Shown: piece by piece, positions 2,996 to 63,915 of the stretch
Layout of the letters: each line of letters begins with the position of its first letter
Numbering within the stretch: position 1 is the first letter of the stretch
Assembly: GCA_016705245.1 (NCBI GenBank)
Contig: JADIYM010000025.1
Span: forward strand, 2,577 to 66,576
Length of the DNA: 64,000 bases
Direction: 5' to 3'
Source: Blastocatellia bacterium
Lineage (GTDB): Bacteria > Acidobacteriota > Blastocatellia > UBA7656 > JADIYM01
Notes under the pieces: generated by a model
Databases searched by the model: none
The model's input: the letters and a program-made list of their open reading frames with translations, nothing else
Told to the model about the DNA's origin: nothing
Program-made: the position numbers and the translations under genes

Positions 2996-3090
2996 CCGCG
3001 GCTCTGTGACTCTGTGTGCGAAGCTCTTCAGCGTTCTCAAAGAGCTTCGCACACAGCGTCACAGAGCCAGGGAGGCACAGAGTTACGGAC
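2996..3090. repeat. Palindromic repeat family P1 (core GTGTGCGAAGC...GCTTCGCACAC with CACAGAG/CTCTGTG flanks), copy 1. Probable hairpin terminator after the CHAT gene.
   Basis: Inverted repeat ctctgtgtgcgaagctcttcag...agagcttcgcacacag. The same core recurs at about 35.7, 43.9, 45.6, 51.7 and 63.8 kb. Confidence 0.8.
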
Positions 3091-3224
3091 ACATCTCTCG
3101 CCCGACAGTGAGGCGATTCGGACGATTTTCTCGCGCTACAGATGAGGATTTCGGTCGCCGCTTGTGCCGATCGACGGCCGGCTGAATACTGTCGACCCGA
3201 ACCTGCCAGGCCCAGGAGAGTCCA

Positions 3225-4130
3225 ATGCAGTCCATCCGGCTCCGTCGAAGAGTCTTGCTGAGCGCCATCGCAACCCTTCTCGTCGCGCCGGCGACTCCAT
3301 TTGCGGTCTTGGCTCAGTCCAGCGCCTCGGACGAACTTCGCGGCGCGAACTATGTCTACGCCAGGCCTGCCGCCCGGTCTCGAACGTCATCGAATCGGGC
3401 CCGGTACCGCAAACGTGCGGGCCGCCTGCCGTCGGCCGACGTCGCCGACGCGCGTATCGGCGTGACGTTATGGAGAGCCGACCCGTCCCGAGCGACGGGC
3501 CGCTCGTCGACGCGCGACATCGTGCAGGTAGGCTCCGAGACCAAGTCATGGTCTCTTGTGCGTGTCGGATCCGACACGGAGCTCGCTACTGGTGACCTTT
3601 TCCGCGTCGGCATCGAGACGCTCAGGTCCGGGTACCTCTATGTCATCAACAGGCCGATCCGCGCGGACGGAACGACCGGCGATCCTTACCTCGTTTTTCC
3701 CACGCGACGCATTCGTGGCGGTGACAACTCTGTCGTTGCCGGCCGGATGGTGATGATCCCCACTCCTCCCGACGAGCCGCCGTTTCAGACGACCGATCCT
3801 TACGGCGACGTCGTGGGTGAAGAGCTCATCATCCTGGTCACTCCCAGTCCTATCGACATCGAGACGCGCGAGGATCGTTACCGCGTGCCGGCCGAGCTGC
3901 CGGAGTCGTGGATCACCGAGTGGGGCGCCCCGACCGAGACGTTCGAGCTGGTCGGCGGCGCCGGAGCAGCCTACACGCGCGTCGAGCGGGCCGCGGCGAC
4001 GAATCCGGCCAGACTGCTCACTCCATCCGAACCGCTCCCCCAGATCGTGCACATGCTGGCAGCAAAACCCGGCAGCCCGATGTTGGCGCGGGCGCTGCTA
4101 CGCGTTCGCCGGACCTTGGCATCACCTTAG
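3225..4130 (+). CDS. Hypothetical secreted protein with a signal peptide
   Basis: N-terminal signal peptide (LLSAIATLLVAPATPFAVLAQS). 301-aa ORF with coding-like composition. I recognise no family. Confidence 0.55.
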   Translation: MQSIRLRRRVLLSAIATLLVAPATPFAVLAQSSASDELRGANYVYARPAARSRTSSNRARYRKRAGRLPSADVADARIGVTLWRADPSRATGRSSTRDIVQVGSETKSWSLVRVGSDTELATGDLFRVGIETLRSGYLYVINRPIRADGTTGDPYLVFPTRRIRGGDNSVVAGRMVMIPTPPDEPPFQTTDPYGDVVGEELIILVTPSPIDIETREDRYRVPAELPESWITEWGAPTETFELVGGAGAAYTRVERAAATNPARLLTPSEPLPQIVHMLAAKPGSPMLARALLRVRRTLASP

Positions 4131-4142
4131 TTCTACTGCTCA

Positions 4143-4259
4143 ATGCGCGAAGCGCTTTGGAGTGCGGCGTGAATCGCCGCTTTGGATTCTTGACAGTTTG
4201 CGATCAAGATTTTTATCAAAAGCGGCGATCCACGCCGCACTCCAAAGCGCTTCGCGCAA
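4143..4259. repeat. Palindromic repeat family P2 (GCGCGAAGCGCTTTGGAGTGCGGCGTGAATCGCCGCTTTGGATTC ... inverted), copy 1
   Basis: A hairpin of about 115 bp with roughly 45-bp arms. It lies between convergent gene ends (3225..4130 + and 4269..5660 -). A second copy is at 19352-19468. Confidence 0.85.
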
Positions 4260-4268
4260 TGCCGGGCG

Positions 4269-5660
4269 TCACGCTCCCCTTGCTCGCAGGCGTGCGCGAA
4301 CGCGCGGGGCGGCGAGCGGATCGAACGCGGGCGAGAGCGAGAGTGCCTGCTCGAAGTACGTCCGCGACACATCTGCATCGCCGGCCGCAAGCGCGATCTC
4401 GCCTGCGTGATAGAGCATCCGCGCATCGTCCGTCCCGAAGCGTAGCGCGTCCCGAATGGCCGCCTGCGCCTCGGCAATGCGGCCCGACTTGAGCGCCGTC
4501 CACGCAAGCGCGTCTGCACCGTACACATCGCGGCGGACTGAGTACTCCTTCGACGCATCTTCGTAGGCCTGCTCAACGCTGCGATCGTGATCGGCCCGGA
4601 AGATCGCAAGTTGCCGGTTGTAGAGCACACCGTTGAGCGCGCTCAGGCGTCCGATCTGCTCTACCAATGCGTATTGCGCGGCGGCGTCGGAATCGCGGCC
4701 GGCTGCGGCGTAGCAGTCCCCAAGCGCCGCAATGAACGCCGGATCGGGCACTATCCGAGACACGTGTTCGTATCCCGCAATTGCTCCGGCCAGGTCGCCG
4801 CGCGCCGCGAGCGCCCTTGCACGCGACGCCAGGGCCCTGAAATACCCCGGATAGACGACCAGCGAGTCGTCCGCGTGCCGCTCGGCGGCTTCGTAGTCTC
4901 CTCGTGCGAACGCCGTCTCTCCGAGCTGCCAGTGGCACCACGCAATGGTTTCGCGCGGCGCTGGATCGAGCTGCACTGCAGCCGCGAGCGCCGATTCGTA
5001 TGCGCGCCTGGCGCGATCGTGCTCGCCGCGAAGCATCGCGAGCCGAGCCTGACGCGTCGCTACGTCGAAGGCTGCTCCGTCGCTCGATATCGCCCGCTGT
5101 TCGATTGTCCGGATCGTGACGGCGGCGGCCTCGTAGGATCCGAGCTCGAGCTGCACGTCGAAAAGCATGACGAGCGGCGCAATGCTTTCCGGTTCGAACG
5201 AGCGCCACTGCTCGGCATGTTGCCGCGCCGACTCGAATTCGTGCGATGCGAATTCCACGTGCGTGAGAGCCGCAAGACCGCCGACGTTCAGCTCTGCCGG
5301 CACCGACGCGAGCGACTCACGTGCTGCTCGACCCGCGAGCTCGAGGTAGGCAACGCTTCCCGTCTCGCGGACCTTCTGGAGGTAATAGCCCACTAGCTTG
5401 TTGCGCGCGATGAAGTCGTGTGGATCTTCGCGTGCCTTGTCTTCGAGAAAACGGATTGCGCCGTCCGAAGCCGCGTCATCGGCCGCAATGGGCGAAGCGG
5501 GTGGCAACGGCTGCGCAGTGGAGTCGGCAGCCGGCGAAGTCGAAGCGCAGCCGCCGGCAGAAAGGACCACGACAACGAGCGCAAGAGCGAATCCGAGTTC
5601 TGGCTTGCGCCTTTGCGCCTTTGCGCGATTGTCTTTGAAGGCTCGAAGAGGTGCTCGCAA
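4269..5660 (-). CDS. TPR-repeat lipoprotein
   Basis: Signal peptide with lipobox (LSAGGC). Multiple TPR-like helical repeats (YYLQKV..., AWCHWQLGETAFARGDYEAAE...). Start codon is uncertain: the 5' end has a TTG start inside a GCGCCTTTGCGC palindrome. Confidence 0.65.
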   Translation of the reverse strand: MRAPLRAFKDNRAKAQRRKPELGFALALVVVVLSAGGCASTSPAADSTAQPLPPASPIAADDAASDGAIRFLEDKAREDPHDFIARNKLVGYYLQKVRETGSVAYLELAGRAARESLASVPAELNVGGLAALTHVEFASHEFESARQHAEQWRSFEPESIAPLVMLFDVQLELGSYEAAAVTIRTIEQRAISSDGAAFDVATRQARLAMLRGEHDRARRAYESALAAAVQLDPAPRETIAWCHWQLGETAFARGDYEAAERHADDSLVVYPGYFRALASRARALAARGDLAGAIAGYEHVSRIVPDPAFIAALGDCYAAAGRDSDAAAQYALVEQIGRLSALNGVLYNRQLAIFRADHDRSVEQAYEDASKEYSVRRDVYGADALAWTALKSGRIAEAQAAIRDALRFGTDDARMLYHAGEIALAAGDADVSRTYFEQALSLSPAFDPLAAPRVRARLRARGA

Positions 5661-5778
5661 AGGCGCAAAGGCGCAAAGGCGCGACGACTCGTGTGGCTGC
5701 TCATTCCAATCACAACGTCTAATCGAAAAAGCCGGGGCCGAGCCGTCCGCGGACAGCTCGACCCCAGCAGAGAAGCGC

Positions 5779-6990: not shown

Positions 6991-7099
6991 GGGAAATCCT
7001 CCTGCAAATTCGAAGACAAGTGTCTTCTTGCTGCTTCGCCGGTCCGCGGGGCTTCCCCTCAGGGCGCTCTCCGTCAGTCGCTCTCCGGCGGGTGCGCTA

Positions 7100-9436: not shown

Positions 9437-9705
9437 CCATACCAGTCGCTCGCTAGAAAGTTTTGGTGGCCGAGTTTCGACTGACCCTACGCAGGCCCCG
9501 GGTGTTTCGGATGCCCGGAGTGAGAGTGCAACGAGGATACGGCGGATTTCGGCGGATCACTCGGCTCTGAAAGCGCGTATTCAGAGCCGCGATCCGCCGA
9601 AATCCAACAGATCCGCGCTGCTCTTATACTTCAAAACATCCAAATCGGCCTTTTGTTGAAATACAAACTACTTGACCTGTTTTTCCGGGCCGTGCTAGTT
9701 TCCGT

Positions 9706-10404
9706 TTGTCAGTACTTACTTACTTACCAGAGAGAAGGAGACGAGTGACGCTACCCATTCAACATCACGAGGAGATCGCCCCGCGGATGCGCGCCGATGC
9801 GCGCAGGGAGCAGCTAATCGGCGTCGCCGTCGACCTCTTCTCACGAAAGGGGTTCTCGGGAACCACGACGAAGGAAATCGCCGCTGCCGCCGGCGTTACC
9901 GAAGCACTCATCTTCCGCCATTTCCCGACAAAGGACGCCCTCTACGACGCAATCCTCCGATGGCGCGTCGAAAAGTGCGGGACCCAGAACTGGCTCGAGC
10001 TCCTGCAGCCACTCGCGGACAACCGTGATGACGACGGGATCATTCGTGCGGTCACATCCGGCCTGCTCGAATTCCATCGCGAGAACGTCGATTTCCTGAG
10101 ACTGATGTTCTTCGCCGTGCTCGAGAATCACGAGCTCGCCCAGAGCTTCCGCGAGAGTCAGATCCGTCCGATCTACGAGTTCCTCACCAACTACATTTCC
10201 TTGCGACAGCGGGAGGGCGCGTTCAGGTCGCTCGACCCCGGGACGACGGTACGCGCGATCTTCGGTGCGCCGTTTTACCACTCGATAGTCAACAACCTCT
10301 TTCACTGCAACATGCTGCAGGTCAGCGACGAAGTAGCCGTCGACACGTTCGTGCGGCTCGCACTCGATGGTCTCCGGACTCCGGAAGACCACACGGAAGG
10401 ATAG
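9706..10404 (+). CDS. TetR/AcrR family transcriptional regulator
   Basis: HTH segment LFSRKGFSGTTTKEIAAAAGVTEALIFRHFPTKDALY. It sits directly upstream of an efflux operon. Confidence 0.85.
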   Translation: MSVLTYLPERRRRVTLPIQHHEEIAPRMRADARREQLIGVAVDLFSRKGFSGTTTKEIAAAAGVTEALIFRHFPTKDALYDAILRWRVEKCGTQNWLELLQPLADNRDDDGIIRAVTSGLLEFHRENVDFLRLMFFAVLENHELAQSFRESQIRPIYEFLTNYISLRQREGAFRSLDPGTTVRAIFGAPFYHSIVNNLFHCNMLQVSDEVAVDTFVRLALDGLRTPEDHTEG

Positions 10405-10409
10405 GAATC

Positions 10410-11762: not shown

Positions 11763-11774
11763 GACGAACGGACT

Positions 11775-19351: not shown

Positions 19352-19468
19352 TTGCGCGAAGCGCTTTGGAGTGCGGCGTGAATCGCCGCTTTGGATTCCC
19401 CTCGACGAGTTCTTGTCCAGGGAATCCAAAGCGGCGATTCACGCCGCACTCCAAAGCGCTTCGCGCAA
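19352..19468. repeat. Palindromic repeat family P2, copy 2
   Basis: Arms nearly identical to copy 1 (gcgcgaagcgctttggagtgcggcgtgaatcgccgctttggattc ... inverted). It lies between convergent thyX (+) and 19486..21252 (-). Confidence 0.85.
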
Positions 19469-24603: not shown

Positions 24604-24652
24604 CGAAGGGAGCTCACTACCAGGTAAACCCGGTCCCCGGTCTCCGTTTTTT

Positions 24653-24777
24653 GAGCCGCGAGCGGTAGCGAGCGTCCCACGGACGGTCCCTGAAATCTCA
24701 TACTCGTCGTTGCGGTAGGACAGAAGTGATCGGAACCGTTCGACCGTCCGTGGGACGCTCGCTACCGCTCGCGGCTC
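24653..24777. repeat. Palindromic repeat family P3 (GAGCCGCGAGCGGTAGCGAGCGTCCCACGGAC ... inverted), copy 1
   Basis: Arms of about 32 bp. It overlaps the 3' end of the NUDIX gene and lies between convergent genes. A second copy is at 49593-49688. Confidence 0.85.
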
Positions 24778-25381
24778 GAAAACGGGGGAAAGAACACCAG
24801 CACGTGATTCCGAGGCCGCAGCTGACGAACCAACGGATCACAGATTGAGACAGATCCCACCAGTAGAGCGCGGCGACGACGAGGGCGTGCTCGATCCGAC
24901 CTTCAGCGACTAGCGAGCGAATGCGAGAGACGGGTTCGAGCACGAGCCGCAGTTCTTCGTTGCCATCGGGTGACGGTTCGGCAACCTGCTCGACGTCAAG
25001 CGCGAGAAACGTGAAGCACCGATTCGACTGAATCGCAGGATTCGGATCCACGGTGCCGATGTGTTGCCACCGTTCGGTCGCGTAGCCCGTCTCCTCGAGC
25101 AGTTCGCGACGGCCGGCGTGCTCGGGTGTCGCGTCCTCGGCGTCGATCATTCCGCCTGGAATCTCGAGCGTCGTCCGGCGCACGCCGTGGCGGTACTGCT
25201 CCACGAGCACCATGCGGTCGTCGCGAGTGATGGCGACGACGTTGACCCAGTCGCTCGCGTCGAGAACGTAGAACTCACCCTCCCGTCCGGTTTCCTGCGA
25301 GGTCCGTCTGTGCGCGTGTAGCTTGAAGATCGGGGTGTCCGCGAGCGTGCGCGTCGCGAGGTGCTTCCAGTGCTTGATCAT
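24698..25381 (-). CDS. NUDIX hydrolase
   Basis: Nudix box GGMIDAEDATPEHAGRRELLEETG. The C-terminal roughly 25 codons are encoded by the P3 palindrome. Confidence 0.8.
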   Translation of the reverse strand: MIKHWKHLATRTLADTPIFKLHAHRRTSQETGREGEFYVLDASDWVNVVAITRDDRMVLVEQYRHGVRRTTLEIPGGMIDAEDATPEHAGRRELLEETGYATERWQHIGTVDPNPAIQSNRCFTFLALDVEQVAEPSPDGNEELRLVLEPVSRIRSLVAEGRIEHALVVAALYWWDLSQSVIRWFVSCGLGITCWCSFPRFRAASGSERPTDGRTVPITSVLPQRRV

Positions 25382-28132: not shown

Positions 28133-28171
28133 GTCGAGTCAGTCTACGAGTCCGGTGCATTACGGTTTCGA

Positions 28172-28270
28172 GGGAAGAGTTGACAGGATTGCAGGATTTT
28201 CAGGATTGATAGGAAAGTGAGTAATTGTGTTAATCCTGATAATCCTGCAATCCTGTCTACTCTCCTCTCC
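28172..28270. repeat. Palindromic repeat family P4 (CAGGATT-rich), copy 1
   Basis: ttgacaggattgcaggattttcaggattga...aatcctgataatcctgcaatcctgtc. It contains the TAG stop (gtctac on the minus strand) of the methyltransferase gene. An inverted copy is at 34026-34121. Confidence 0.8.
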
Positions 28271-29020: not shown

Positions 29021-31545
29021 ATGTCAGCGGTAACCGCAATTGGATCGATCTCGCAGTGCTTCGCGGCTCGAGTCTCGGAGGGACCGTCGCGGCCAGCCGT
29101 TCGTGCCGGCGACTGCGAATTCTCTTATGCCGATCTGGACGCGCGCTCAAACGGACTCGCGCGCGAGCTTCAGGCGCGGCGCCTGGTCGCTGGTGACCGC
29201 GTCGCCGTGCGCCTGGCACGGACGGACCTGCTCGTTCCGACGATTCTCGGGATATTGAAGGCAGGCTGCGTCTACGTCCCGCTGGACCCCACGTATCCGG
29301 AAGCGCGCACCCGCTCGATACTCGACGACTGCAGCGCTGCGCTCGTGATCTCGGACGATGGAGACGGGCTCGATCCCAACGCGGTTTCGCCGTCGAACGA
29401 GTCGCCGACTGCAATCGTCGAACCGGACGCACTCGCCTGCATCGTGTACACCTCGGGATCGACCGGAACGCCAAAAGGCGTCATGCAGACGCACGCGTAG
29501 CTGGTCGCGTTCGTTCGGAACTGCATCGCGCCCTTCGGCGTCTCGAGCGGCGACAGGCTCTCGATGCTTTACTCATACAGCTTCGCCGCCGCCAACATGG
29601 ACGTCTTCGGTGCGTTGCTCAGCGGCGCAACGGTCTGCTTCTATCCGCTTCGCGAGCGAGGCGTCGCCGGACTCGCCGCGTGGATCGCCGGGGAACGCGT
29701 CTCGATTCTTCATACCATACCGACCGTGTTTCGCCAGCTCATCGCGAGCCTCGAGCAGGGGGATTCACTTGCGACCGTTCGTGCCGTCGATCTCGGTGGC
29801 GAGCCCGTGCTCTCGGTCGACGTCGACCGATTTCGCGAGCATTTTCCGGAAACGGCACTGCTCGTCAACCACTACGCCGCGACCGAACTGAGTGTCATCG
29901 CCCAGATGCCGATTAGCGCCTCGACACACGTCGGACCGGGCGCGGTCCCAGCCGGCTACGCTGCACACGGCGTCGAGATCCGCATCGTCGACGCCGACGG
30001 CGCGGATGTTCCCTCGGGCACGGAAGGCGAGATCGTGGCGCGAAGCGTGCACATGAGCGCGGGGTACTGGAACCAGCCGGAATTGACGGCGCGCAACTTT
30101 GCGACTGACCCGGCGAGCGGCGGACTTCGAATCTACCGAACCGGCGATCTTGGGCGACTGGCGCCCGACGGATGCCTCCAGCATCTGGGCCGCGTGGACG
30201 ATCGCATCAAGATCCGGGGCCAGAGTGTCGAAGTTGCCGAGGTCGAAAACGCGCTCGTCGCCTTCGACGAAATTGCCGAGGCCGTCGTCACGGCGCGTCC
30301 GTCGCCGGCCGGTTCGACGAGGCTTGTCGCCTTCGTGGTCTCGCGCGCCGGGGCATTCCCGACGGCCGAGTCGATCAGGCAACGACTCGCCGTGACACTT
30401 CCCGAATCCATGATCCCGTCGGCGGTTGTCCTGCTCGACCGGCTCCCTTTGACGCCGAGCGGAAAGGTCGACCGCGCCGCCCTCCCCGAGCCTGACCAGG
30501 CGCGCCCCACGCTCGAGGCTGTATTCGTCGAGCCGCGGGATGACCTCGAATCCACGCTCTGTCGCATGTGGGAGGAAATCACGGGAGTGAAGCCCGTCGG
30601 TGTCGACGACGACTTCTTTGCTCTCGGGGGCGACTCGCTAGGCGCGGTCCACCTCTTTGTTCGAATCGAGCGGTTGACAGGGCGACGGCTCCCGCTCTCC
30701 AGCATCATGCGGGCACCGACCGTTGCCAGAATGGCAGAGCTCGTGCGAACGGACGCGGGCTACTCCTCCGCATGGCACCTCGCCACGCTCGGGGCCCGAG
30801 GGACCGAACCGCCGATTTTCTTCGTTCACGGCCTGCGCGGCGGCGTCGTGTTCCTGCGTGGGCTCGTTGAAGCGCTCGGGCCGGACCAGCCGAGTTTTGC
30901 GTTCGAGGCCGACGGCCGATTCGAGGGTCCGCTCGACGCGTCGAGCATCGAAGACCTTGCCGCGGCCTATGTGGACCTGCTGCGCGGCGTTCGTCCGCAA
31001 GGCCCTACCACCTCTGCGGTTATTCGGCCGGCGGCCTCATCGCGTTCGAGATTGCCCGACAGCTCTCCGCCGAAGGCGAGGAGGTCGCGTTTCTCGGACT
31101 CATAGACACCTACGCACCGGTCGCTGGTCGTCGCGTGTCGCCGCTTCAGAAGAAACTGAACCACGCCAGGGTGCTCCGAGCGCTTCCGCGGAGCGAGCGC
31201 GTCGCCTTCGCGCGTCGAACGGCGGACCGCGTCCTTCGCCGTGAGCAGAAGCGTGCGGGAGGCCCCGACGTCGACGGGCCCCTACGTCGCGCACTGCTCG
31301 AGCTGCTCGAGGCGTACGGGCCCGACGGCGGTTATCGCGGACACATCGACCTGTTCCGGCCATCGATTCCATTTCTCGGCGCGCGGATGGACCGTGCGCT
31401 CGGTTGGGACCGGTGCGCGGTCGCAAGCTACACCGTTCACGACGTGCCGGGCGATCATCGAACGGTGTTCGAGGCCGGCAACGCGCAGGCGCTTGCGAAG
31501 TCGATTTCGCGGAAGCTGAATCGGACCGAAGCCGGTGCGGACTAG
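29021..31545 (+). pseudogene. Standalone NRPS-like module (adenylation - PCP - thioesterase), disrupted by an in-frame TAG at 29498 and a frameshift near 31000
   Basis: A-domain cores (YTSGSTGTPKGV; YRTGDLGR; GRVDDRIKIRGQSVE), PCP core (FFALGGDSL) and TE GxSxG (GYSAGG, readable only after a frame change near 31000). The ORFs 29021..29500 and 29564..31105 share one frame and are separated only by a TAG. Confidence 0.7.
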
Positions 31546-34037: not shown

Positions 34038-34121
34038 ACAGGATTACCGGATTTTCAGGATTGACAGGAGAGGTTCCTGTACATCCTGGGAATCCTGTAA
34101 TCCTGTCAACTCTCCTCCCCC
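34026..34121. repeat. Palindromic repeat family P4, copy 2 (inverted relative to copy 1)
   Basis: agacaggattaccggattttcaggattgacagg...gggaatcctgtaatcctgtcaactctcc. Confidence 0.8.
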
Positions 34122-35717: not shown

Positions 35718-35739
35718 GCGGATCTCGCGAGTATGAGCT

Positions 35740-35815
35740 CCGTGTCTCTGCGTCTCGTGTGACCTGCGAAGCGTCTCAGAGCGCTTCGCACAGAGCCACA
35801 GAGACTCAGGGCAGG
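35740..35815. repeat. Palindromic repeat family P1, copy 2
   Basis: ctgcgaagcgtctcagagcgcttcgcacagagccacagagactcag, between the convergent flippase (+) and moxR (-). Confidence 0.75.
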
Positions 35816-36851: not shown

Positions 36852-38143
36852 TTATCGCTCGATCTGGTCGAGCAACGAGCCGGTCTTGCTGTTCGGATTC
36901 CCGGCTTCTTCCTTGCCCGGCCGCGTCACTGGCCGAACATCTGGAGGAGGTCCGGAGCGCATCCCGGGACGCGCTGGCGCCGCCGGTCGAGGCGGCGGAG
37001 TCTGCGGAGGCACCTGCGCTGAAGGATCGCGCAGATCCGACATCGACAGTCTCAGGTTGTGCTTGTTCGTGGCGTATGCGAGGCCGTCCTCGAACGTCAC
37101 GAGGCCTTCGCGGACCATCTTTTCGAGAACCGTGTCGAAGTCCTGCATCCCGTCGATGTCTCCGGCGCGCATCGCCTCGATGAGCGAGCGCTTTTCGGCC
37201 TCGCCCTTCTCGATGTACTCGCGCGTGCGCATCGTCGAGCGCAGGATCTCGACGGCGGGGATGCGGCCCTTGCCGTCGGCCCGCGGCAGAAGCCGCTGCG
37301 ACACGATGTACCGGAAGCTCGTGGACAGTCGTTGGCGGATGCTCTGCTCGTGGGTTTTCGGGAAAATGCCGATGATGCGGTCGACAGTCTTGGCGGCGTC
37401 GGTCGTGTGCAGTGTCGAGAAGACGAGGTGGCCCGTCTCGGCCGCATCGAGGGCAACCTCGACGGTCTCGAGGTCGCGCATCTCGCCCACGAGAATGACC
37501 TTGGGCGCCTGCCGCAGCGCCGGAAGTTGTCCGTATCCGTGTGCAACTCCCGTTGATGAACGGTCGACAGCTTGTGCGGATGCAGGAATTCGATCGGATC
37601 CTCGATCGTGACGATGTGGTATGCGTAGCGCTGGTTGATCTCGTCGACGATCGCAGCAAGCGTCGAAGACTTGCCCGACCCGGTCGGCCCGGTCACGAGC
37701 ACGATGCCGTTCTTCAAGTCGACGACGTCCTTGAGGTGTTCGGGAAGATTGAGGTCGCGGAAGCTCGGCACGCGGTTGGGAATCACTCGCATGACGATCG
37801 CTATCGTGCCGCGCTGCTTGAACACGTTGACGCGAAACCGCGACATGCCGGGCAACGAGTAGCTGACATCCGCCGATCCGGTGCGCTCGAGGCTCTCGGC
37901 CGCGGCTTCGTTGCCTGCAACGAGCACCTTTGCGATGGCAGCGGTGTGTTGCGGAAGCAATCGGTCGAGTCCGGGGAGCGGAATCGGATGCAGCTTCCCG
38001 ATGTGCTCGACCTGCGGCGGTCGCCCCGGCGAGAAGATCAGGTCGCTGACGTTGTCCGCATGCGAGAGCATGGCCTTCAGAATTTCGTGGAAATTCTGGA
38101 CCGTGCCACTTGCCGGGTTACCTGTGGGGGGGTTCTGGGACAT
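36852..38143 (-). CDS. pilT: Type IV pilus retraction ATPase PilT (twitching motility), apparent 1-nt frameshift near 37.5 kb
   Basis: Walker A GPTGSGKSST and the PilT motif GHLVFSTLHT. The N-terminal part is ORF 37097..38143 and the C-terminal part is ORF 36852..37490. They join at HTDTD-SF...ALRQAPKVILVGEMRD if one base is inserted or deleted. Confidence 0.75.
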
Positions 38144-41407: not shown

Positions 41408-41730
41408 GAGACCCAGAACCCAGAGCGCAGCGAGGGGCCGACCTCAGCATCGGTAGCCGTTGAAGAGCCGGATGCCGTCAAACCAGACCATCGCCGACCC
41501 AGAACCCAGAGCGCAGCGAGGGGCCGACCTCAGCATCGGTAGCCGTTGAAGAGCCGGATGCCGTCAAACCAGACCATCGCCGACCCAGAACCCAGAGCGC
41601 AGCGAGGGGCCGACCTCAGCATCGGTAGCCGTTGAAGAGCCGGATGCCGTCAAACCAGACCATCGCCGACCCAGAACCCCGAGCGCAGCGAGGGGCCGAC
41701 CCTGGCATCGGTATCAGCCGGAGAACCGGA
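41408..41730. repeat. Tandem direct repeat, 86-bp unit x about 3.7
   Basis: Unit cccagaacccagagcgcagcgaggggccgacctcagcatcggtagccgttgaagagccggatgccgtcaaaccagaccatcgccga, repeated head-to-tail with near-perfect identity. The last copy degenerates. Confidence 0.9.
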
Positions 41731-41835: not shown

Positions 41836-42250
41836 GTATTGGTCTTCGAACTAAGCCGAGGGCACGTCGAATGCTGCCAGTCGCAGTGGATCTATTGGTC
41901 TTTGAGAGAAGCCACTCCCGTCTGCGAAGCTCGTAGATATTGGTCTTCGAGAGAAATCGGGTTTCGGATGGGGCCAATTCATGCCTTTGAACTCGGCAAG
42001 ATACCTATTGGACTTCGAGAGAAGCCTTATAGGGACTCGAGAGAAGTACCTATTGGAACCTGAGAGAAATACTCGCAGATCTCCCAAGGGACCGAGTCAC
42101 GGGTTTGGAGAGAAGAACTATCGGGTTCGTGAAGAGGAATGTATCGGATTCATGAATAAGAGGTATCGGTCACGGAAAGAACGGGAATCGGGTTCTGGAA
42201 GAAACTGAATTGGGTGCCGGGAGAACAGATATCGGTCCCGGAAAGAAATC
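41836..42250. promoter_or_regulatory. Iteron array (about 13 copies, 22-23 bp spacing, consensus TATYGGNYNNSRGAGAA) plus an AT-rich stretch: putative oriV-type replication origin
   Basis: Repeats TATTGGTCTTCGAGAGAA, TATTGGACTTCGAGAGAAG, TATCGGTCACGGAAAGAA and others. Local GC is far below the window average. AT-rich 42255-42330. Immediately upstream of a Rep initiator gene. Confidence 0.7.
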
Positions 42251-42348: not shown

Positions 42349-43872
42349 GTGATCCCGGCAGAAGGATCAGGAATGACCAAGAAGAGCCGGCCCCAGTCGC
42401 TGGGGACACGGAAACAGCGAGGGCGCAGCGGCAAGGACGAAATGAACCTCGCCGTCTTTCCGATTGCGGCGCTTTCGGTTCGTGTGCCGAAGGACGTCAA
42501 GGCCCTCAAGTTTCAGGACTCGATCCAGGGCGACGGCGGGAAAATCGTCAAGCGAACGTGGACGGTGCAGGGCGGATCGGACTGCGGGTTGCCGACGGCG
42601 GGCGACGAAGACGTCTACGTTGCCCTGATGGAGTTGACCCGAAAGCTCGGATTCTCGGATCGAAAGGTCAACTTCTCGCGCTACGAACTTGCCAAACGAC
42701 TCGGCTGGTCGCCGTGCGGGAAGACCTACAGCCGAATCGAACAGGCGCTGCTCCGGCTCGCGAACGTGAACATCCACGCATCGAACGCCTTCTGGGACAA
42801 CGCGAAGCGCAGCTACGTGACTGTGAGCTTCTCGCTGATCCAGGAGTATCAGCTCTATGACGAAAAGCCTCGAAAAGGCGAAAAGCTCCGTTCTGACCCG
42901 CCGTCGAGCTTTTTCATGTGGACCGAGCGGCTCTTCGAAAGCTTCAAGAGCGGTTACATCAAGTTTCTCGACACGGAGCTGTACTTCAAACTGAACTCGG
43001 CTACGGCTCGGCGTCTCTTCCGGTACCTCGACAAGAAGTTCGGCCGTGACCACCATTTCGCGATCGACGTCTTCAAGCTGGCGCACGAACACCTCGGAAT
43101 CAGCCGGAATTTCAAATACGTCTCCCAGCTCGTTCAGCAGCTCAAGCCGGCGCTCGAGGACCTGAAGGTAAATGGGTACCTGAGGACGTGGGAGGTCCGT
43201 GACCGGGTCATCTCGTTCCAGCGCGTGCCCCACGACGAGTACGAGCAGGAGGTTCTGGAGGAGGCGCTTGACGGCCTGCCTTTTGAAGAGGCCTCCATGA
43301 CGATCGAGGTCGAAGGAGACGACGAAGCGAAGTTAGCCGGCGTCGAAGGAGACGTCCTCGCGGCGCTCCTCGATCGTGGCATCACGAGACGCCGGGCGGC
43401 ATCGATCGTACGGGCGCATTCCCCGAACCGGCTGGGTCAGATCACGGACACGATCTCGTACTTTGACTGGCTGCTCAAACACGGCAAGCGGCGTGTCGAA
43501 AACCCGGCGGGATTTCTCATCTCGCTTATTAGCGACGAGTTGCCGGTCAGTCACGTGGCCCCGCCGCAGGAGGTGGCGACGGCGAACGACGTGACGGACG
43601 AGATCGAGCGGCGAAGCCGTGAGGAGCTCGACTACACGGTCTTCGTCGACACCGAGGTCAATCGCGCAGTGAGCCGGATGGGCGATCTGGCGCTCGAGGC
43701 TCGCATCCAGGAGAAGATGGGGGAGTTCAAGGCCAGCGACAGGGCCGAGGTCTACCATCGTTGGTCCAATGACATGCTGCGCAGTCACGCGGTTCTGTTC
43801 GTGCGGAAGGCCATTGCGGTGGAATTGCAGCTCCCGGAATTCGAGCAGTGGCTCGAACAGCGGCGCAGCTAA
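42349..43872 (+). CDS. repA: Replication initiator protein, RepA (RPA family, PF10134-like)
   Basis: N-terminal block NLAVFPIAALS...GLPTAGDEDVYVALMELTRK...NFSRYELAKRLGWSPCGKTYSRIEQALLRLANVNI matches the conserved layout I recall for alpha-proteobacterial plasmid RepA/RPA proteins. Probable start is the ATG at 42373 (AGGA RBS). GTG at 42349 is the alternative. Confidence 0.7.
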   Translation: MIPAEGSGMTKKSRPQSLGTRKQRGRSGKDEMNLAVFPIAALSVRVPKDVKALKFQDSIQGDGGKIVKRTWTVQGGSDCGLPTAGDEDVYVALMELTRKLGFSDRKVNFSRYELAKRLGWSPCGKTYSRIEQALLRLANVNIHASNAFWDNAKRSYVTVSFSLIQEYQLYDEKPRKGEKLRSDPPSSFFMWTERLFESFKSGYIKFLDTELYFKLNSATARRLFRYLDKKFGRDHHFAIDVFKLAHEHLGISRNFKYVSQLVQQLKPALEDLKVNGYLRTWEVRDRVISFQRVPHDEYEQEVLEEALDGLPFEEASMTIEVEGDDEAKLAGVEGDVLAALLDRGITRRRAASIVRAHSPNRLGQITDTISYFDWLLKHGKRRVENPAGFLISLISDELPVSHVAPPQEVATANDVTDEIERRSREELDYTVFVDTEVNRAVSRMGDLALEARIQEKMGEFKASDRAEVYHRWSNDMLRSHAVLFVRKAIAVELQLPEFEQWLEQRRS

Positions 43873-43874: not shown

Positions 43875-43965
43875 CGCTCCGTGACTCTGAGCCTCGGCGT
43901 CTCTGTGTGCGAAGCATCTGAAGCGCTACGCACACAGAGACGCGGAGGCTCAGAGCCACGAAGAA
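43875..43965. repeat. Palindromic repeat family P1, copy 3
   Basis: ctctgtgtgcgaagcatctgaagcgctacgcacacagagacgcggag, between convergent repA (+) and 43991..44410 (-). Confidence 0.75.
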
Positions 43966-45544: not shown

Positions 45545-45648
45545 GCCGCTTGGCTCCGTGTCTCGGTGCCTCTGAGTCTCTGTGTGCGAAGCTCCGCCGC
45601 CGCTTCGCACACAGAGACTCAGAGGCACCGAGACACGGAGGTGCTTCT
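45545..45648. repeat. Palindromic repeat family P1, copy 4 (longest, near-perfect arms of about 45 bp)
   Basis: ctccgtgtctcggtgcctctgagtctctgtgtgcgaagc tccgccgccg cttcgcacacagagactcagaggcaccgagacacggag, between the convergent BON gene (+) and fabG (-). Confidence 0.9.
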
Positions 45649-48987: not shown

Positions 48988-49608
48988 ATGGTGACGAAAC
49001 GAGGCGACGGTCGACTGCCAAAGCTCGCAGCCCTGGTGCTGATCGGGCTCGCGGCCGCAGTCGGCACGGCGTTGGCGCCGGATGCCGGGATGGCGTCATC
49101 GAAGGGGCCGTTCGGCGGCTTCACGGGAGCGCCTGGCGAGGACACGTGCAGGCACTGCCACGATTCGTTTCCGCTGAACGTGCCGGGCGGACTGCTGACG
49201 GTCTCGGGGTTTCCCGAGGTCTATGTGCCTGGCGAGACGTATGCGGTGACCGTGATACTCGCCAGCGACAGCGGTGAGGTATGGGGCTTCGAGGCGACGG
49301 TGCTGTCGGACAAGAGGAAACGTGCGGGCAGGCTGATTGCCGTCGACCGCGATACAACCAAGGTTGTTCCAGGCGTCTTTCTGACGACGCGTGAGTACGT
49401 CGTGCAGAAGAAAGCCGGATCGTATGACGGGCAGCGCGGCTCGGCGACCTGGACCTTCAACTGGAAGGCTCCGAAGAAGGACAAGGGTCCCCTGACGATT
49501 TACGTGGCCGGCAACGTCGGCAACGACAACGAGCAGAAGACGGGCGATTTCATCTACGCCGTGCAGGTCACGTCGCAGCCGGCGGGCGATATGAGCCGCG
49601 AGCGGTAG
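48988..49608 (+). CDS. Secreted hypothetical protein with a single CxxCH motif
   Basis: Signal peptide and CRHCH (a c-type heme-binding-type motif). Its TAG stop lies inside P3 repeat copy 2. Confidence 0.5.
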   Translation: MVTKRGDGRLPKLAALVLIGLAAAVGTALAPDAGMASSKGPFGGFTGAPGEDTCRHCHDSFPLNVPGGLLTVSGFPEVYVPGETYAVTVILASDSGEVWGFEATVLSDKRKRAGRLIAVDRDTTKVVPGVFLTTREYVVQKKAGSYDGQRGSATWTFNWKAPKKDKGPLTIYVAGNVGNDNEQKTGDFIYAVQVTSQPAGDMSRER

Positions 49609-49688
49609 CGAGCGTCCCACGGACAGTGTTGCGGAGAAGATCGCCCCGGTAGCACTGTCCGTTGGACGCTCGCTACCGCTCGCGGCTC
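49593..49688. repeat. Palindromic repeat family P3, copy 2
   Basis: gagccgcgagcggtagcgagcgtcccacggacag...ctgtccgttggacgctcgctaccgctcgcggctc. It overlaps the 3' ends of two convergent genes. Confidence 0.85.
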
Positions 49689-50952
49689 ATTGCCTGCCGA
49701 CGATCGTTACCGTGATGATTGAACGCTCTGCCCGGGCTGCGAGGCTGCGACGCTCGCGCTCGAGCGACTCCTTGGACGACTTTTTCGACTTGCGGGTATC
49801 GGCAGGCGCGTCTTCGTTCTTCCGTTCCTCGGCCATTTCGTCGTTGATCTCGGCGAGTCTGCCCGAAAGGTCGATGGCCGATCGCCGCACTGACTGTACG
49901 TTTCCGACTCCGCGCAGTCGCGAGATCGTCCGCTCGAAATTCTCGGCCGGCACGCTGATTTCCACGGTCACCGTATCCCCGTCACTGTCCTTGGACCGCG
50001 TCCATCGCTTGGTGACCGAACCGTTCTCTGCACGGGCCGCCGCCGCCACGCGGTCTGCAATGCTCGCTGCTTCAGTTCCTGTGATCGCGACGTCGGCGCG
50101 GTGAACTACGGCGGATTCCGACTCGCGACGTCCGGCGCTTCTCGCGGCCGGTTTCGGTGCAGCCGGCGCGGCCCGACCAGCCGCGATTTTCGAATCTGCC
50201 TTTCCGCCAGCGTAATCGTCGCGGCCGGGCGCGACCGCGGCCTCGGCGGGCTCGGATGCCGGCGGTTGCGCAAGCGCTCCAGGTCCCGTGGCCGGCGGCG
50301 GCGCTGGAGCCGGTTGCTCTGCCGCGGCCGCGGCCTCCCCGCCCTGGCCAGCGCTGTCCCCCGTCGTAACGTCGGTCACATTGGCATCGGCCTCGGTTTG
50401 ACCGACGACGCCCGATTTCTCCGGCGCGGTCTGTTCGTCCACAGGCTTGTCCGTCTCGGAGTCTTGCGAGTCACCGGCCGGCGCGTCGCCCGCCGACTTC
50501 GAGGCCGGATCACTTGACAGCGGAGTTGTGCCTTCCGCCGCGCGCGGCGCACCCGGCGCGGTAGCCGACTCTCCGACGACCGGAGCATTGAGGCCGCCCT
50601 TCTCGGACGGCACGTACCGGGGGAGTATTACGAGACCCGCGACGGCAGCAAACAGCGCAATCCCGGCGACCGCGCCGTACCGGCGCACGAGGTCTCTCCA
50701 GCCGCCCGAGCCCGGTGCGGATGAAGAGGGCGGAAGGCCGACCCGGTCCAGCAGTTCGCGCGCCGTCGGAAGTGCTTCCGGCTCCGGCGCCCCCCATTTC
50801 TCGAGCGCCCCGGTGACGTCCTTCAGGTCTCCGATCGTGCGATGGCAGTCCACACAGCCGACGATGTGCTCCGCGACGCGGGCGCGCCCGGCCTGGTCGA
50901 GGTCGCCATCGACCCACGCCAGCAGCATGTCGTCTTTCATTCCGCAGTTCAT
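49687..50952 (-). CDS. Anti-sigma factor (zf-HC2-type zinc finger, single TM, Pro/Ala-rich extracytoplasmic region)
   Basis: HIVGCVDCH zinc-finger motif near the N-terminus, a TM helix (AVAGIALFAAVAGLVIL), and the start about 25 nt after the ECF sigma stop. Confidence 0.7.
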   Translation of the reverse strand: MNCGMKDDMLLAWVDGDLDQAGRARVAEHIVGCVDCHRTIGDLKDVTGALEKWGAPEPEALPTARELLDRVGLPPSSSAPGSGGWRDLVRRYGAVAGIALFAAVAGLVILPRYVPSEKGGLNAPVVGESATAPGAPRAAEGTTPLSSDPASKSAGDAPAGDSQDSETDKPVDEQTAPEKSGVVGQTEADANVTDVTTGDSAGQGGEAAAAAEQPAPAPPPATGPGALAQPPASEPAEAAVAPGRDDYAGGKADSKIAAGRAAPAAPKPAARSAGRRESESAVVHRADVAITGTEAASIADRVAAAARAENGSVTKRWTRSKDSDGDTVTVEISVPAENFERTISRLRGVGNVQSVRRSAIDLSGRLAEINDEMAEERKNEDAPADTRKSKKSSKESLERERRSLAARAERSIITVTIVGRQ

Positions 50953-50977: not shown

Positions 50978-51586
50978 CTACCGACCCGGCGACCGCATCG
51001 GAATGACGCGCCCGCCGTGATCGTCTCCACTTTCCATGCCAAGCAGCGGCTCGAGATGCCGCCGCAGGTCCAGCTTTCCCCGGAAGATCCGCGACTTTAC
51101 TGTTCCGACCGCCACTCCCGTGATCTCCGCAATCTCTTCGTAGCTCAGTCCCTGGTACTCTCGAAGCACGATAGCTTCGCGCTGTTCCGGATCGATCTTG
51201 TCGAGTGCCTCGACGACGAACGCCGCCTCCTGATGCAAGCTGGCCTGTCCGTCCGGTCCAAGTGCACCGTCTTCGACGTCGACCGTCGATCCATCCTCGC
51301 GCTCCAGCGAATCGACCACGCGAAAGTCGGCCCGGCGCGCTTCGCTTGCGCACTGGTTGAAGGCGATCCGATAGAGGTAGGTCTTGAACGACGCCTCCTG
51401 CCTCCACGACCCGCGTGACCGTATCAGTCCCATGAACACCTCTTGCGTGAGCTCTTCCGCTCGCGACGCATTCACCAGCCGCCTGAAGACGTACTGGTAG
51501 ATTGACCGACGATACCGGCCATAGAGCTGCTCGAACGCCGCGTCATCGCCGCCCTGAAACGCGGACATCAACTCCTCGTCGGTCAT
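50978..51586 (-). CDS. ECF-type RNA polymerase sigma-70 factor
   Basis: Region 2 (YQYVFRRL...LTQEVFMGL) and region 4 (LSYEEIAEITGVAVGTVKSRIFRG). The likely start is MTDEELMSAF. The longer ORF-track extension runs into the P1 repeat. Confidence 0.8.
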   Translation of the reverse strand: MTDEELMSAFQGGDDAAFEQLYGRYRRSIYQYVFRRLVNASRAEELTQEVFMGLIRSRGSWRQEASFKTYLYRIAFNQCASEARRADFRVVDSLEREDGSTVDVEDGALGPDGQASLHQEAAFVVEALDKIDPEQREAIVLREYQGLSYEEIAEITGVAVGTVKSRIFRGKLDLRRHLEPLLGMESGDDHGGRVIPMRSPGR

Positions 51587-51689
51587 TGCGGGGCCCCCCA
51601 CGCATTCACGCGTACTATCGTACACTGCGAAGGAAAGTTCCCGGCTGGCGAAAAAGAGTAAGGGCGCGTGCTGACGCCGGTGCTGCACC

Positions 51690-51778
51690 CTCCGCGCCTC
51701 GGTGCCTCCGCGTCTCGGTGTGCGAAGCTCTTCAGACGCTTCGCACACAGAGGCACGGAGGCTCGGAGTCACGGTGTG
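51690..51778. repeat. Palindromic repeat family P1, copy 5
   Basis: tctcggtgtgcgaagctcttcagacgcttcgcacacagaggcacggag, downstream of the dehydrogenase gene. Confidence 0.75.
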
Positions 51779-51788
51779 AAGTCGCCGC

Positions 51789-56399: not shown

Positions 56400-56415
56400 G
56401 ACTGGAGGAGACGAC

Positions 56416-61178: not shown

Positions 61179-61228
61179 CGCACGGGTCAGCCGTCGGTAC
61201 ACCGCCGTGGTTTACAATTGGCATCGGT

Positions 61229-61546
61229 ATGGGAACAAGGAAGCAACAAGACCGGTCGGGCGCCGTCGTCGCCGAGCCAAGGGCGATCACGCGGCAGCCG
61301 CCGATGTTCAACGTCCTGCTGCACAACGACAACTTCACGACGATGGAATTCGTCATCGAGGTGCTCATTACGGTCTTTCATCACGACGAGCCGACGGCGT
61401 TCCGGATAATGCTGCAGGTGCACAACGAGGGACTTGGCGTCGCTGGCGTCTATCCGTTCGAGATTGCCGAGTCGAAAGCCGCGAAGGTCATGCGGCTCGC
61501 GCGAGAGCAGGAGTTCCCGCTTCTCTGCTCGGTCGAGGAGGCGTGA
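61229..61546 (+). CDS. clpS: ATP-dependent Clp protease adaptor ClpS
   Basis: MFNVLLHNDNFTTMEFVIEVL...HNEGLGVAGVYPFEIAESK is the ClpS core, about 105 aa. Confidence 0.85.
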   Translation: MGTRKQQDRSGAVVAEPRAITRQPPMFNVLLHNDNFTTMEFVIEVLITVFHHDEPTAFRIMLQVHNEGLGVAGVYPFEIAESKAAKVMRLAREQEFPLLCSVEEA

Positions 61547-61550
61547 GGCC

Positions 61551-63794
61551 GTGCTGACCAACGAGCTCCAGTCGACGCTCAATCGCGCCCTCGAAGCGGC
61601 CTTCATTCGCCGTCACGAGTACCTCACGCTCGAGCACGTGCTCTACGCGATGCTCGACGAACGCACGGCGAGCCGCGTCATTCGGGAGTGCGGCGGAAGT
61701 GTCGACCGCCTCCGCACCGAGCTCGAAAACTACTTTGACGCACAGCTCGAGGCGATGCCCGAGGGTGCCATCGAATCGCCGGAGCAGACGCCCGGCTTCC
61801 AGCGAGTGCTGCAGAACGCGGTGACGCAGGCCCGAAATTCCGGCCAGTCGCTCATCGACGGAGGTCACGTCCTCGCGGCGATCTTCACCGAGCCTCACTC
61901 GACGGCCAGACATCTGCTCGAATCGCAGGGCATGACGAGGCTCGATGTGCTGCGATACCTGTCGGACGGCATCTCGAAGGGCCGGAACCTCCCGGCGCCT
62001 CGACCGGCCACGCCGGGGACCGAGCCGGACGAGGAGGTCGACGAGCGACCGGTCGATCCGCTCGAGGCGTGGACCGAGGATCTCGTTGCGCGCGCCGCCG
62101 CGGGTGGCGTCGATCCGCTCATCGGACGGGAAGCCGAGGTGATGAGGACTATTCAGGTGCTCTGCAGGCGCCGCAAGAACAACCCCATCTTCGTCGGAGA
62201 CCCGGGCGTTGGAAAGACAGCGATCGCCGAAGGGCTGGCGCTGAAGATTCACCGCGGCGAGGTGCCGGACGTGCTTTGCGGCGTCGGCGTCCGGGCGCTC
62301 GATCTCGGCGCGTTGCTTGCCGGCGCAAAGTATCGCGGCGAATTCGAGGAGCGTCTCAAGTCTGTCATCGCGCGGTTGAAGGACGAGCCCGGCACGATCC
62401 TGTTCATCGACGAGATCCACACGCTCGTCGGCGCGGGAGCGGTGAGCGGCGGGGCGATGGATGCTTCGAATATCCTCAAGCCCGCCCTCGCGGCCGGGCA
62501 GCTTCGCTGCATCGGGTCGACGACGTACCAGGAGTACAAGTCGGCGTTCGAGCGCGACCGGGCGCTGGCCAGGCGGTTTCAACGCATCGAGATCTCGGAG
62601 CCGTCGGTGGAGGACACGATCCGCATCCTCGAGGGGCTGAAGCGCCACTACGAGGCACACCACGAGGTGAAATACGCCTCGGCGGCACTCGTCGCCGCAG
62701 CGGAGCTGTCCGCCAAGCACCTCACGGATCGATTTCTGCCGGACAAGGCGATCGACGTCGTCGATGAAGCGGGCGCGGCGACGAAGCTCGTGCCGCTGAA
62801 GAAGCGTCCGAAGACGATCACCGTGAAGGACATCGAGCTCGTCGTCGCACGGATGGCCAAGATCCCGCCGCGGTCGGTCAGCGCGTCGGACCGAGATCGA
62901 CTGGCTTCGCTCGAGACGGAGCTGAAGTCGGTCATCTTCGGACAGGACCATGCCGTCGATCAGCTTGTGCGCGTGATCAAGCTCTCTCGATCCGGACTTG
63001 GACAGCCCGGGAAGCCGATCGGCTCATTTCTGTTCTCGGGACCGACGGGCGTCGGAAAGACCGAGCTGGCGAAGCAGCTCGCGGCTTCGCTCGGCGTCGA
63101 GTTCCTTCGATTCGACATGAGCGAGTATATGGAGAAGCACACGGTCTCTCGTCTGATCGGGGCGCCGCCGGGGTATGTGGGCTTCGACCAGGGCGGGCTG
63201 CTGACCGACGCGATCGTCCGAACTCCGTATGCGGTTCTCGTGCTCGACGAGATCGAAAAGGCGCATCCTGATGTCTTCAACATCCTGCTGCAGGTGATGG
63301 ATCACGCGACGCTGACGGACAACAACGGCAAAAAGGCCGACTTCCGGAACGTCGTGCTGATCATGACGACGAACGCCGGTGCGAGGGACTTGAGCGCCGG
63401 CGGACCGGGCTTCCGGTCCGGAAGCGGCGGCAGCCGCGGGAGGGGGGCGATCGAGCGTGCGTTCAGTCCCGAGTTCAGGAATCGGCTCGATGCCTGGATC
63501 GCGTTTGAACAGCTTTCGTTCCCGACGATCGAGCGCGTCGTCGACAAGTTCGTCGACGAATTGCGGGTGCAGCTCGCGGAGCAGAAGGTGACGATCGAAC
63601 TGACGCCGGCGGCTAGGGTGTGGATGGCGACGAAGGGCTACGACCCGGCGTTCGGCGCGAGGCCGATGTCGCGTCTCGTTCGCGAGAAGCTGCGGGAGCC
63701 GCTTGCCGAGATGCTGCTGTTCGGACCACTGGCGCACGGCGGCTCGGTGCGCGTGGACGTGGAGGATGATGGGCTGACAATTTCGATCCAGTGA
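61551..63794 (+). CDS. clpA: ATP-dependent Clp protease ATP-binding subunit ClpA
   Basis: N-domain repeats ([13 protein letters not shown]), two AAA modules ([15 protein letters not shown]; [17 protein letters not shown]) and a GTG start with a GAGGAGG RBS just after the clpS stop. Confidence 0.9.
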
Positions 63795-63795
63795 T

Positions 63796-63915
63796 CTCCG
63801 TGTCTCAGTGCCTCCGTGTCTCTGCGTGCGAAGCTCTTCTCATTCACTGAAGAGCTGCGCACACAGAGACACTGAGACACCGAGACGCTGAGGCTCGGAG
63901 GCACAGAGACACCCA
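63796..63915. repeat. Palindromic repeat family P1, copy 6 (long arms)
   Basis: ctccgtgtctcagtgcctccgtgtctctgcgtgcgaagctcttc...gaagagctgcgcacacagagacactgagacaccgagacgctgaggctcggag, immediately after the clpA stop. Confidence 0.85.

Follow-up and report, generated by a model that had tools for sequence, protein, structure and literature searches.

P1 copies and their genes

The stretch analysed here, hereafter the window, is the whole of a 64,000-nt piece of a Blastocatellia bacterium contig (JADIYM010000025.1), and it carries a family of palindromic repeats, P1, in copies E1 to E6. As an earlier note on this DNA had proposed, these copies form one repeat family and stand at stop codons: the core it described is present at all six sites, GTGTGCGAAGC with at most one mismatch occurs 14 times in the window as compared to 2.08 ± 1.33 times in shuffled sequence (shuffle maximum 6), 11 of these 14 matches fall inside the six elements, and every copy has, at one end or both, the stop codon of a Pfam-supported gene at a distance of 0-21 nt. 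The count of six copies requires qualification, for five are canonical (74-105 bits, see below) and the sixth, E2, is degenerate at 34.6 bits.

Canonical P1 is 87 nt long and consists of (CTCNGNGN)x4, GCGAAGC, a 9-nt loop (TCTTCAGAC), GCTTCGC and (NCNCNGAG)x4. The CACAGAG, CTGAG and CGGAG arms, which the earlier note had taken for nested layers around the core, are actually tandem units of period 8, with CTCNGNGN as the unit of the 5' arm and NCNCNGAG as that of the 3' arm, and these period-8 arrays were also reported by Tandem Repeats Finder (TRF). An arm in E1 and E3-E5 comprises four units and the 7-nt core, or 39 nt, and E6 has 4+6 units. By the regular expression (CTCNGNGN)n, four units precede the core in E1 and E3-E6, and 3-6 complementary units follow it in E3-E6; the 3' units of E1 are too degenerate for the strict expression, and in E2 each side has two units. 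A covariance model trained on 26 canonical copies recovers five window copies (2986-3082, 43877-43963, 45554-45640, 51690-51776 and 63796-63892) with E-values of 1e-16 to 1e-24 and no others in the window, and it scores E2 (35738-35811) at the level of unrelated hairpin families. Folding of each copy as RNA, a check named in the earlier note, gives -59 to -87 kcal/mol (z -6 to -13.6), with the exception of the weaker E2.

We describe the copies in turn, all given without strand. E1 (2986..3082) has 4+4 units about a long-loop centre, GCGAAGC-TCTTCAGCGTTCTCAAAGA-GCTTCGC (77 bits; -82.1 kcal/mol, z -13.4), and its flanks CCGTAA and TTACGG lengthen the stem to 2980-3088; the TGA of a CHAT-domain gene (2991-2993) lies inside its first unit, and the next gene, 3225-4130 (+), is co-directional. 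E2 (35738..35811), with indels in units and core (-36.9 kcal/mol, z -2.8), is directly preceded by a GGCGGAT-type half array (35700-35729) and lies between a polysaccharide-synthesis gene (stop 35717) and the convergent MoxR gene (stop 35823). E3 (43877..43963; 87 nt, 4+4 units, 96 bits, -67.1 kcal/mol) starts 4 nt past the stop of a RepA/TrfA-like gene, and 27 nt separate its end from the stop of a convergent 139-aa gene. E4 (45554..45640; 105 bits, -86.7 kcal/mol, z -13.6) is a perfect 39-bp palindrome, made up of a pyrimidine-rich (Y) arm at 45554-45585, GCGAAGC at 45586-45592, the loop at 45593-45601, GCTTCGC at 45602-45608 and a purine-rich (R) arm at 45609-45640, and it stands 12 nt from the stop of an SDR gene (-) that converges with a BON gene. 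E5 (51690..51776; 87 nt, 86 bits, -59.3 kcal/mol) carries the consensus loop TCTTCAGAC and lies 12 nt past the stop of a glutamate dehydrogenase gene (-) and ~100 nt upstream of a co-directional ECF sigma gene (50978-51586, -). E6 (63796..63912; 79 bits, -69.8 kcal/mol) has four Y units, a long-loop centre and six R units, and starts 1 nt past the stop of a ClpA/B-like gene (61434-63794, +), its downstream neighbour lying beyond the window. The mostly convergent setting earlier claimed for the family holds for E2, E3 and E4 but not for E1 and E5, which are co-directional, that is, for three of five.

The orthologue of E2 in a metagenome contig (L206, 95-98% identical) is an intact copy of 4+3 units, so that E2 as it stands in the window is either decayed or mis-assembled. 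Several genes of the window are split into overlapping or adjacent open reading frames with half Pfam domains (TPR, CHAT, AMP-binding and T2SSE; 126-1661, 1721-2993, 29021-31105 and 36852-38143), which suggests indel errors of the long-read assembly or pseudogenes, and small irregularities in the repeats are therefore to be read with caution. P1 had no matches in Rfam at gathering thresholds, an E-value search of Rfam returned solely generic microRNA-precursor models that fell well short of their gathering scores, and a literature search on the exact P1 motifs returned unrelated primer matches or none.

Half-modules, constraint and turnover

Across ~650 kb of related DNA (its loci numbered L...), P1 resolves into a half-module, H, of ~44 nt: (CTCNGNGN)x4 followed by GCGAAGC and mostly then by TCTYC. 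There are 329 H modules in this sample, ~89% of them in inverted pairs. P1 itself is two H modules joined tail-to-tail (133 pairs); 13 other pairs are head-to-head, or “inside-out”, with unique loops of ~10-38 nt, and ~11 intact four-unit modules are solos. The inside-out order is GCTTCGC with purine-rich units, a unique loop, and pyrimidine-rich units with GCGAAGC, as for instance in L034 (2426-2512 and 6928-7043), L183 (270-487), L180, L194, L217, L223 and others, and L183 forms one cluster, resembling a bacterial interspersed mosaic element (BIME), in which both pair types alternate. P1 linkers measure 9 nt in 75 copies and 18-21 nt in 38 copies; TCTTCAGAC is the commonest 9-nt linker (28 of 91 short loops), and in the 18-21-nt linkers TCTTC-N-GAAGA lengthens the stem. 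Of 122 copies, 76 (62%) have 4+4 units and 92% are within one unit per arm of that number, which contradicts the stepwise growth of the hairpin that the earlier note had envisaged. P1 behaves as a pair of fixed-size half-modules.

The units are constrained in a characteristic way. Five of the eight positions of each unit, together with the core, are nearly invariant and the three N positions vary, with an entropy per position of 0.08 bits for the fixed set, 1.16 bits for the N set and 0.73 bits for the loop. When the 39 stem pairs were compared across the 26 canonical copies, the 20 fixed-position pairs showed 0 changes on both sides, and hence no compensatory switches, and about half of the N-position pairs were mismatched. 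Arm pairing reaches 89.6% as compared to 87.0 ± 0.5% in shuffles (0 of 500 shuffles higher), indicating that complementarity at the N positions is weakly maintained. RNA-level selection for pairing at these positions was considered and rejected, with covariation this weak and G-U pairs not above A-C. The strict five-of-eight code, repeated four times per arm and free of compensatory changes, points to what would be sequence-specific periodic recognition, and not mere hairpin stability. Pairwise distance at the N positions averages 11.0 of 24, equal to the column-shuffled expectation, and even the closest pair has 3 differences in 24; recent copies are thus lacking, and with them any sign of recent transposition.

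The orthologue of E5 in L016, whose flanks are ~84% identical to those in the window, has the same core and loop (23 of 23 positions, loop 9 of 9) and differs at 9 of 24 N positions and at 3 of 40 fixed positions. As judged from this alignment, the orthologous copy proves constraint in situ, the fixed positions being under purifying selection and the N positions drifting at a roughly neutral rate.

Genome-wide, the family is confined to a narrow lineage. A pattern search of 185,579 species genomes (one genome per species), of the kind that the earlier note had suggested, yielded 45 loci; octamer arms are present in 37, all from two sister metagenome-assembled genomes (MAGs; CAZXLQ01 and CAZQBW01, ~64% GC). 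The remaining eight are core-only hairpins in unrelated genomes (Hydrogenedentota, Ilumatobacteraceae, Planctomycetaceae, Flavobacteriales, Ktedonobacteraceae, Marinicaulis and Clostridiales), which we discarded as chance matches as they have no octamer arms. The half-module pattern occurs in >120 metagenome contigs among the matches listed, many of them in an assembly containing the same species. We note that the sister MAGs carry the title “uncultured Clostridia bacterium” and share ~84% identical syntenic DNA with the Blastocatellia window; the Clostridia label is probably wrong. Two proteins of the window have identical counterparts under the name “[Blastocatellia bacterium]”, and the closest named relatives of its glutamate dehydrogenase belong to Acidobacteriota (“Candidatus Polar…”).

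Glutamate dehydrogenase orthologues allowed one site to be followed across relatives. P1 lies directly 3' of the glutamate dehydrogenase stop in the window, L016, L049/L050 (90% amino-acid identity) and L213. In L051 (81% amino-acid identity) the E5 site is without P1 and holds a plain GC hairpin, and in L054 (67%) it holds a canonical terminator, GGGCGCTGG-CACCA-CCAGCGCCC then TTTTTCATTTTTT. Synteny with L054 extends over E3, E4 and E5, all three sites being empty there and the spacer equivalent to E3 measuring 35 nt, and in 12.6 + 8.8 + 21 kb of distant relatives there are no octamer arrays and no other large palindromes of the window families. By this distribution, the family expanded after the genus split from relatives with ~81% identical glutamate dehydrogenase. 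Just downstream of E5 a small hairpin with a T-tract persists, in the window as well as in L016, and P1 was therefore added in the space that separates the native signal from the stop codon. Loss is seen as well: a metagenome contig (L046) is without 85 nt of E4, the deletion lying between GYGCCTC direct repeats, which identifies it, by its endpoints, as an apparent microhomology deletion. The short-read contigs L049, L050, L052 and L053 end within or just before the hairpin 3' of the glutamate dehydrogenase gene, and in L048 an N-gap replaces one arm of E4; P1-type repeats break or corrupt assemblies.

Kinship, origin and role

P1 bears out the earlier description of a dispersed, lineage-restricted palindromic family just 3' of genes, similar to repetitive extragenic palindromes (REPs) and miniature inverted-repeat transposable elements (MITEs), and it is a real new variant of this kind, built of octamer-array half-modules and conserved in place by sequence-specific constraint. 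REPs, BIMEs and REPINs (REP doublets forming hairpins) are organised as solos, head-to-head and tail-to-tail dimers and clusters (PMC3733652; PMC3116915), with a GTAG/CGTC tetranucleotide tag at one REP end (PMC3733652). Like these proteobacterial elements, P1 is high-copy (6 copies in 64 kb), extragenic and mostly downstream of genes; it likewise occurs as single units, inverted dimers of both orientations with discrete linkers and alternating clusters, and it is lineage-specific and vertically kept at orthologous sites, without target-site duplication. The REP unit is a 20-40-bp imperfect palindrome, whereas the P1 unit H, four tandem octamers plus the 7-nt core, is non-palindromic; in further contrast, P1 is without the GTAG/CGTC tag and without a master sequence, no REP-associated tyrosine transposase (RAYT) was found in the DNA searched, and the host phylum is Acidobacteriota. 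P1 fails the defining REP features, namely the palindromic unit, the tag and the master sequence. With MITEs and eukaryotic foldback elements, P1 shares being short, non-autonomous and almost wholly two inverted arms, and the arms of foldback elements consist of short tandem subrepeats. P1 differs from MITEs and foldback elements in that it has no target-site duplication, that no related autonomous element was found in the sampled loci, and that it is bacterial and 87 nt long. With regard to duplication, among 128 copies the 2-nt flanks match in 9 (~8 expected) and the 3-nt flanks in 1 (~2 expected). The sampled loci, which cover a fraction of any genome, hold no long H-bounded element with a transposase; L188, L190 and L071 were tried as such elements and proved to carry ordinary or phage genes without a transposase.

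The reading that we favour, with belief and doubt about evenly balanced, is that P1 is a REP/BIME-like non-autonomous repeat family of this Blastocatellia lineage whose copies probably serve, secondarily, as transcript-end hairpins. H would have been spread by an enzyme acting in trans, and the type that we favour is a single-strand-DNA Y1/HUH enzyme, akin to RAYTs or to the tyrosine transposases associated with terminal inverted repeats (TIRYTs), because of the missing target-site duplication, the two dimer orientations, the GCGNAGC core and the reports of transposases in Acidobacteria. These reports concern TIRYTs (PMC3733652), which might serve as a lead for P1's missing enzyme. GCGNAGC is an extraordinarily stable DNA mini-hairpin, found where primase recognises the origins of single-stranded phages (PMC13037366), and the GCGAAGC core, as an instance of this motif, might similarly be a lead for single-strand recognition. 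Copies would survive almost only where they are harmless, a few bases past stop codons, and the 39-bp RNA stem would probably be a barrier there, fixing and protecting transcript 3' ends and damping read-through between neighbours; it would presumably not act as a classical intrinsic terminator.

Several observations weigh against this reading. The ~55 window proteins yielded no transposase domain, and a tblastn search of ~360 kb with RAYT/IS200 queries, a weak test, gave nothing better than E = 0.5. Unlike active REPIN populations, the family has neither near-identical copies nor a master sequence; GTAG is found near the ends of 11 of 128 copies and CGTC near those of 20 of 128, neither at a fixed position; and H is not self-complementary, the 87-nt hairpin requiring the pair. 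As to the transcript-end part, 5 of 46 copies (11%) lie between robust divergent gene pairs, in divergent promoter regions, and no U-tract adjoins any P1 copy. The orientation of the loop bears no relation to transcription (9 same, 13 opposite), and on the transcribed strand G-U pairs (30) are not preferred to A-C mismatches (44).

The position of the copies nonetheless makes a role at transcript ends plausible from the gene maps. The distance from P1 to the stop codon has a median of ~14 nt and is 0-35 nt in most copies of the sampled loci, a gene 3' end is at most 60 nt away in 32 of 46 copies, and all seven convergent gene pairs of the window hold a 75-150-nt repeat-family palindrome (P1 in three pairs, two other families in two pairs each). 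A classical intrinsic terminator was tried as an explanation and rejected: the hairpin is present, but the required adjoining 7-9-nt U-tract is absent. T- or A-runs lie within 70 nt of P1 in ~10 of 50 copies, and the loops are forward in 46 cases as compared to 42 reverse. The recruitment of the repeats as bidirectional intrinsic terminators, which had been proposed in the earlier note, is not demonstrated: the missing U-tract, the missing link with orientation, the divergent copies and the native T-tract hairpin that follows E5 speak against it. What remains of that proposal is the terminator-type position, which still fits a transcript-end role in view of the stop-codon distance, the seven convergent pairs and the terminator of L054 at the E5 site.

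Alternatively, P1 copies might have been built by the host as bidirectional, U-tract-independent terminators or insulators, in a lineage without classical intrinsic terminators, their repetitiveness being secondary. We think this unlikely. It would agree with the stop-codon distances and the filled convergent pairs, with the number of U-tract terminator-like sites in 42-62 kb, which is at chance (13 found as compared to 13.7 expected), with the hairpin plus TTTTTCATTTTTT of L054 and the plain GC hairpin of L051 at the E5 site, and with the purifying selection on fixed positions in situ. In several respects P1 also resembles the noncanonical high-GC hairpin “terminators” (mycobacterial motifs) and uptake-sequence pairs, which are repeated, very stable, free of a U-tract and likewise concentrated between convergent genes; it differs from such hairpin “terminators” in its periodic octamer code and in its presence also in divergent regions and as solos. 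However, mycobacterial hairpins without a U-tract are reported to have failed to terminate in vitro (PMC3993855), and P1 has none either. Furthermore, the retention of a hairpin with T-tract by both E5 and its L016 orthologue indicates that P1 was added to the native signal rather than replacing it. Also against it are a sequence identity fixed beyond pairing, with about half of the N-position pairs mismatched, the lack of a G-U over A-C bias or of an orientation preference, the copies between divergent genes, and intact solo half-modules that are unable to form the hairpin.

Another possibility, to which we give little credence, is that P1 works as double-stranded DNA, H being four 8-bp sites for a cooperative protein (nucleoid-associated, a ribbon-helix-helix-like regulator or a recombinase) and the core a dyad centre, with the hairpin incidental. 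Such periodicity is familiar from the tandem 8-bp boxes bound by MetJ and the tandem 7-bp heptads bound by the omega repressor. An array of sites would explain why five of eight positions are invariant and three free without compensatory switches, why even the unpaired loop is conserved (TCTTCAGAC in 28 of 91 short loops; 9 of 9 positions in orthologous copies) and why intact solos exist. The octamers are, besides, otherwise arranged in many high-GC contigs, and comparable sites in Geobacter metallireducens have been annotated as putative IHF/HU sites in the published description of that genome (PMC2700814). Such a reading is nevertheless without a known candidate protein; it does not predict placement at stop codons for a regulator site, and it sits poorly with the ~89% of modules in inverted pairs whose tightly fixed linkers maximise the hairpin, and with arm pairing above shuffles (89.6% as compared to 87.0%, 0 of 500 exceeding).

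That P1 is a classical DDE-type MITE or an assembly artefact we consider very improbable, for while its ~87 nt, terminal inverted arms and intergenic position are MITE-like and the element is a frequent breakpoint of short-read contigs (L049, L050), the 128 copies lack target-site duplications, no longer same-ended element with a transposase was found in the sampled loci, and its presence in independent NCBI, ENA, JGI and Logan assemblies with site-specific N patterns shows that it is not an artefact.

Related arrays and the wider meaning of P1

P1 is not the only repeat of its kind in the window, which holds at least five further palindromic repeat families (4141-4261 and 19352-19468; 24641-24789 and 49591-49690; 28170-28269 and 34029-34115; 5605-5682; 9525-9624 and 35700-35729). 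Two are long non-periodic palindromes, one of them with GCGCGAAGCGC at its outer ends, and three have arms of tandem 8-9-nt units (CAGGATTN, TTGCGCCT and GGCGGATNT). The TTGCGCCT/CTTTGCGN family recurs in the sister MAGs, as does another with CTCTGTG arms and a different core, and together with P1 the further families fill all seven convergent intergenic regions of the window. Among the neighbouring features, the region of the RepA/TrfA-type replication initiator gene (41410-41713, 42111-42247 and 42349-43872) has an 86-bp tandem repeat (x3.5, 98% identical) and iteron-like 21-23-bp repeats before the gene, and the gene and its neighbours are syntenic in the distant relative L054; on these features the region resembles an origin of plasmid type carried by a stable replicon, perhaps a chromid or second chromosome. 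The ~70 nt upstream of the ECF sigma gene (51587-51660) are nearly invariant, also in L016 and L051, in surroundings of diverged intergenic DNA, and are probably its promoter or leader.

The nearest published counterpart of these octamer arrays comes from another phylum. The intergenic inverted pairs of Geobacter metallireducens, in their published description (Aklujkar et al. 2009, PMC2700814), are made of tandem octamers or heptamers and fall into three classes: GTTGCTYN x4 (class 1), TCTCCGTS[Y] x3 (class 2) and MTYCTGA x5 (class 3). The same description labels them putative IHF/HU “global regulator” sites, a function that was never established. As described there, the class 2 unit in essence matches that of P1 read in a shifted register (T-CTCCGTG), class 3 resembles the CAGGATT/AATCCTG family of the window, and the sites are, like P1, intergenic inverted pairs of 3-5 tandem 7-9-nt units. 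They differ from P1 in that class 2 has three units per site, that the spacing of the pairs is variable whereas the P1 linker is fixed at 9 nt or 18-21 nt, and that no GCGAAGC core is mentioned in the part of the description concerned with these sites.

A four-unit scan of viral and prophage contigs (IMG/VR) found the octamers CTCCGCGN, CTCCGTGN and CTCTGTGN in many unrelated high-GC contigs. The arrays there are mostly tails-out, GGTTCA-(CGCGGAGN)3-4 ... (NCTCCGCG)3-4-TGAACC, and span 86-270 bp (L058, L079, L085, L098, L105, L112, L115, L118, L121, L123, L125 and L134, with ends also of GTGAAT). The tails-out pairs enclose GC hairpins, often with a GAA triloop, or a hairpin with a T-tract, and some of the high-GC arrays precede a ribosome-binding site and start codon by 25-45 nt. 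Readings of the units as CsrA sites, anti-Shine-Dalgarno sequences, Rho-loading sites or Type IIS restriction sites were dropped as coincidences.

As a tentative and rather improbable extension, we speculate that the CTCNGNG array may be the recognition code of a widely distributed protein, such that P1, the Geobacter class 2 sites and the tails-out elements would be one cross-phylum foldback class that was never defined; the putative reader would be a transposase or recombinase, or a nucleoid protein, with cooperative binding at 8-bp periodicity.

For the lineage itself, there is no excess of classical terminators and a large repeat-family hairpin stands in every convergent gene pair of the window, so that the function of such elements has to be understood before its transcription units can be read. 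We nevertheless find the architecture of P1 more interesting than its location. If one machinery reads the octamer in Blastocatellia, in the sites annotated in Geobacter in 2009 and in the high-GC contigs, this would be a widespread and as yet unnamed class of bacterial repeats, for which Geobacter metallireducens would, if true, provide a culturable model.

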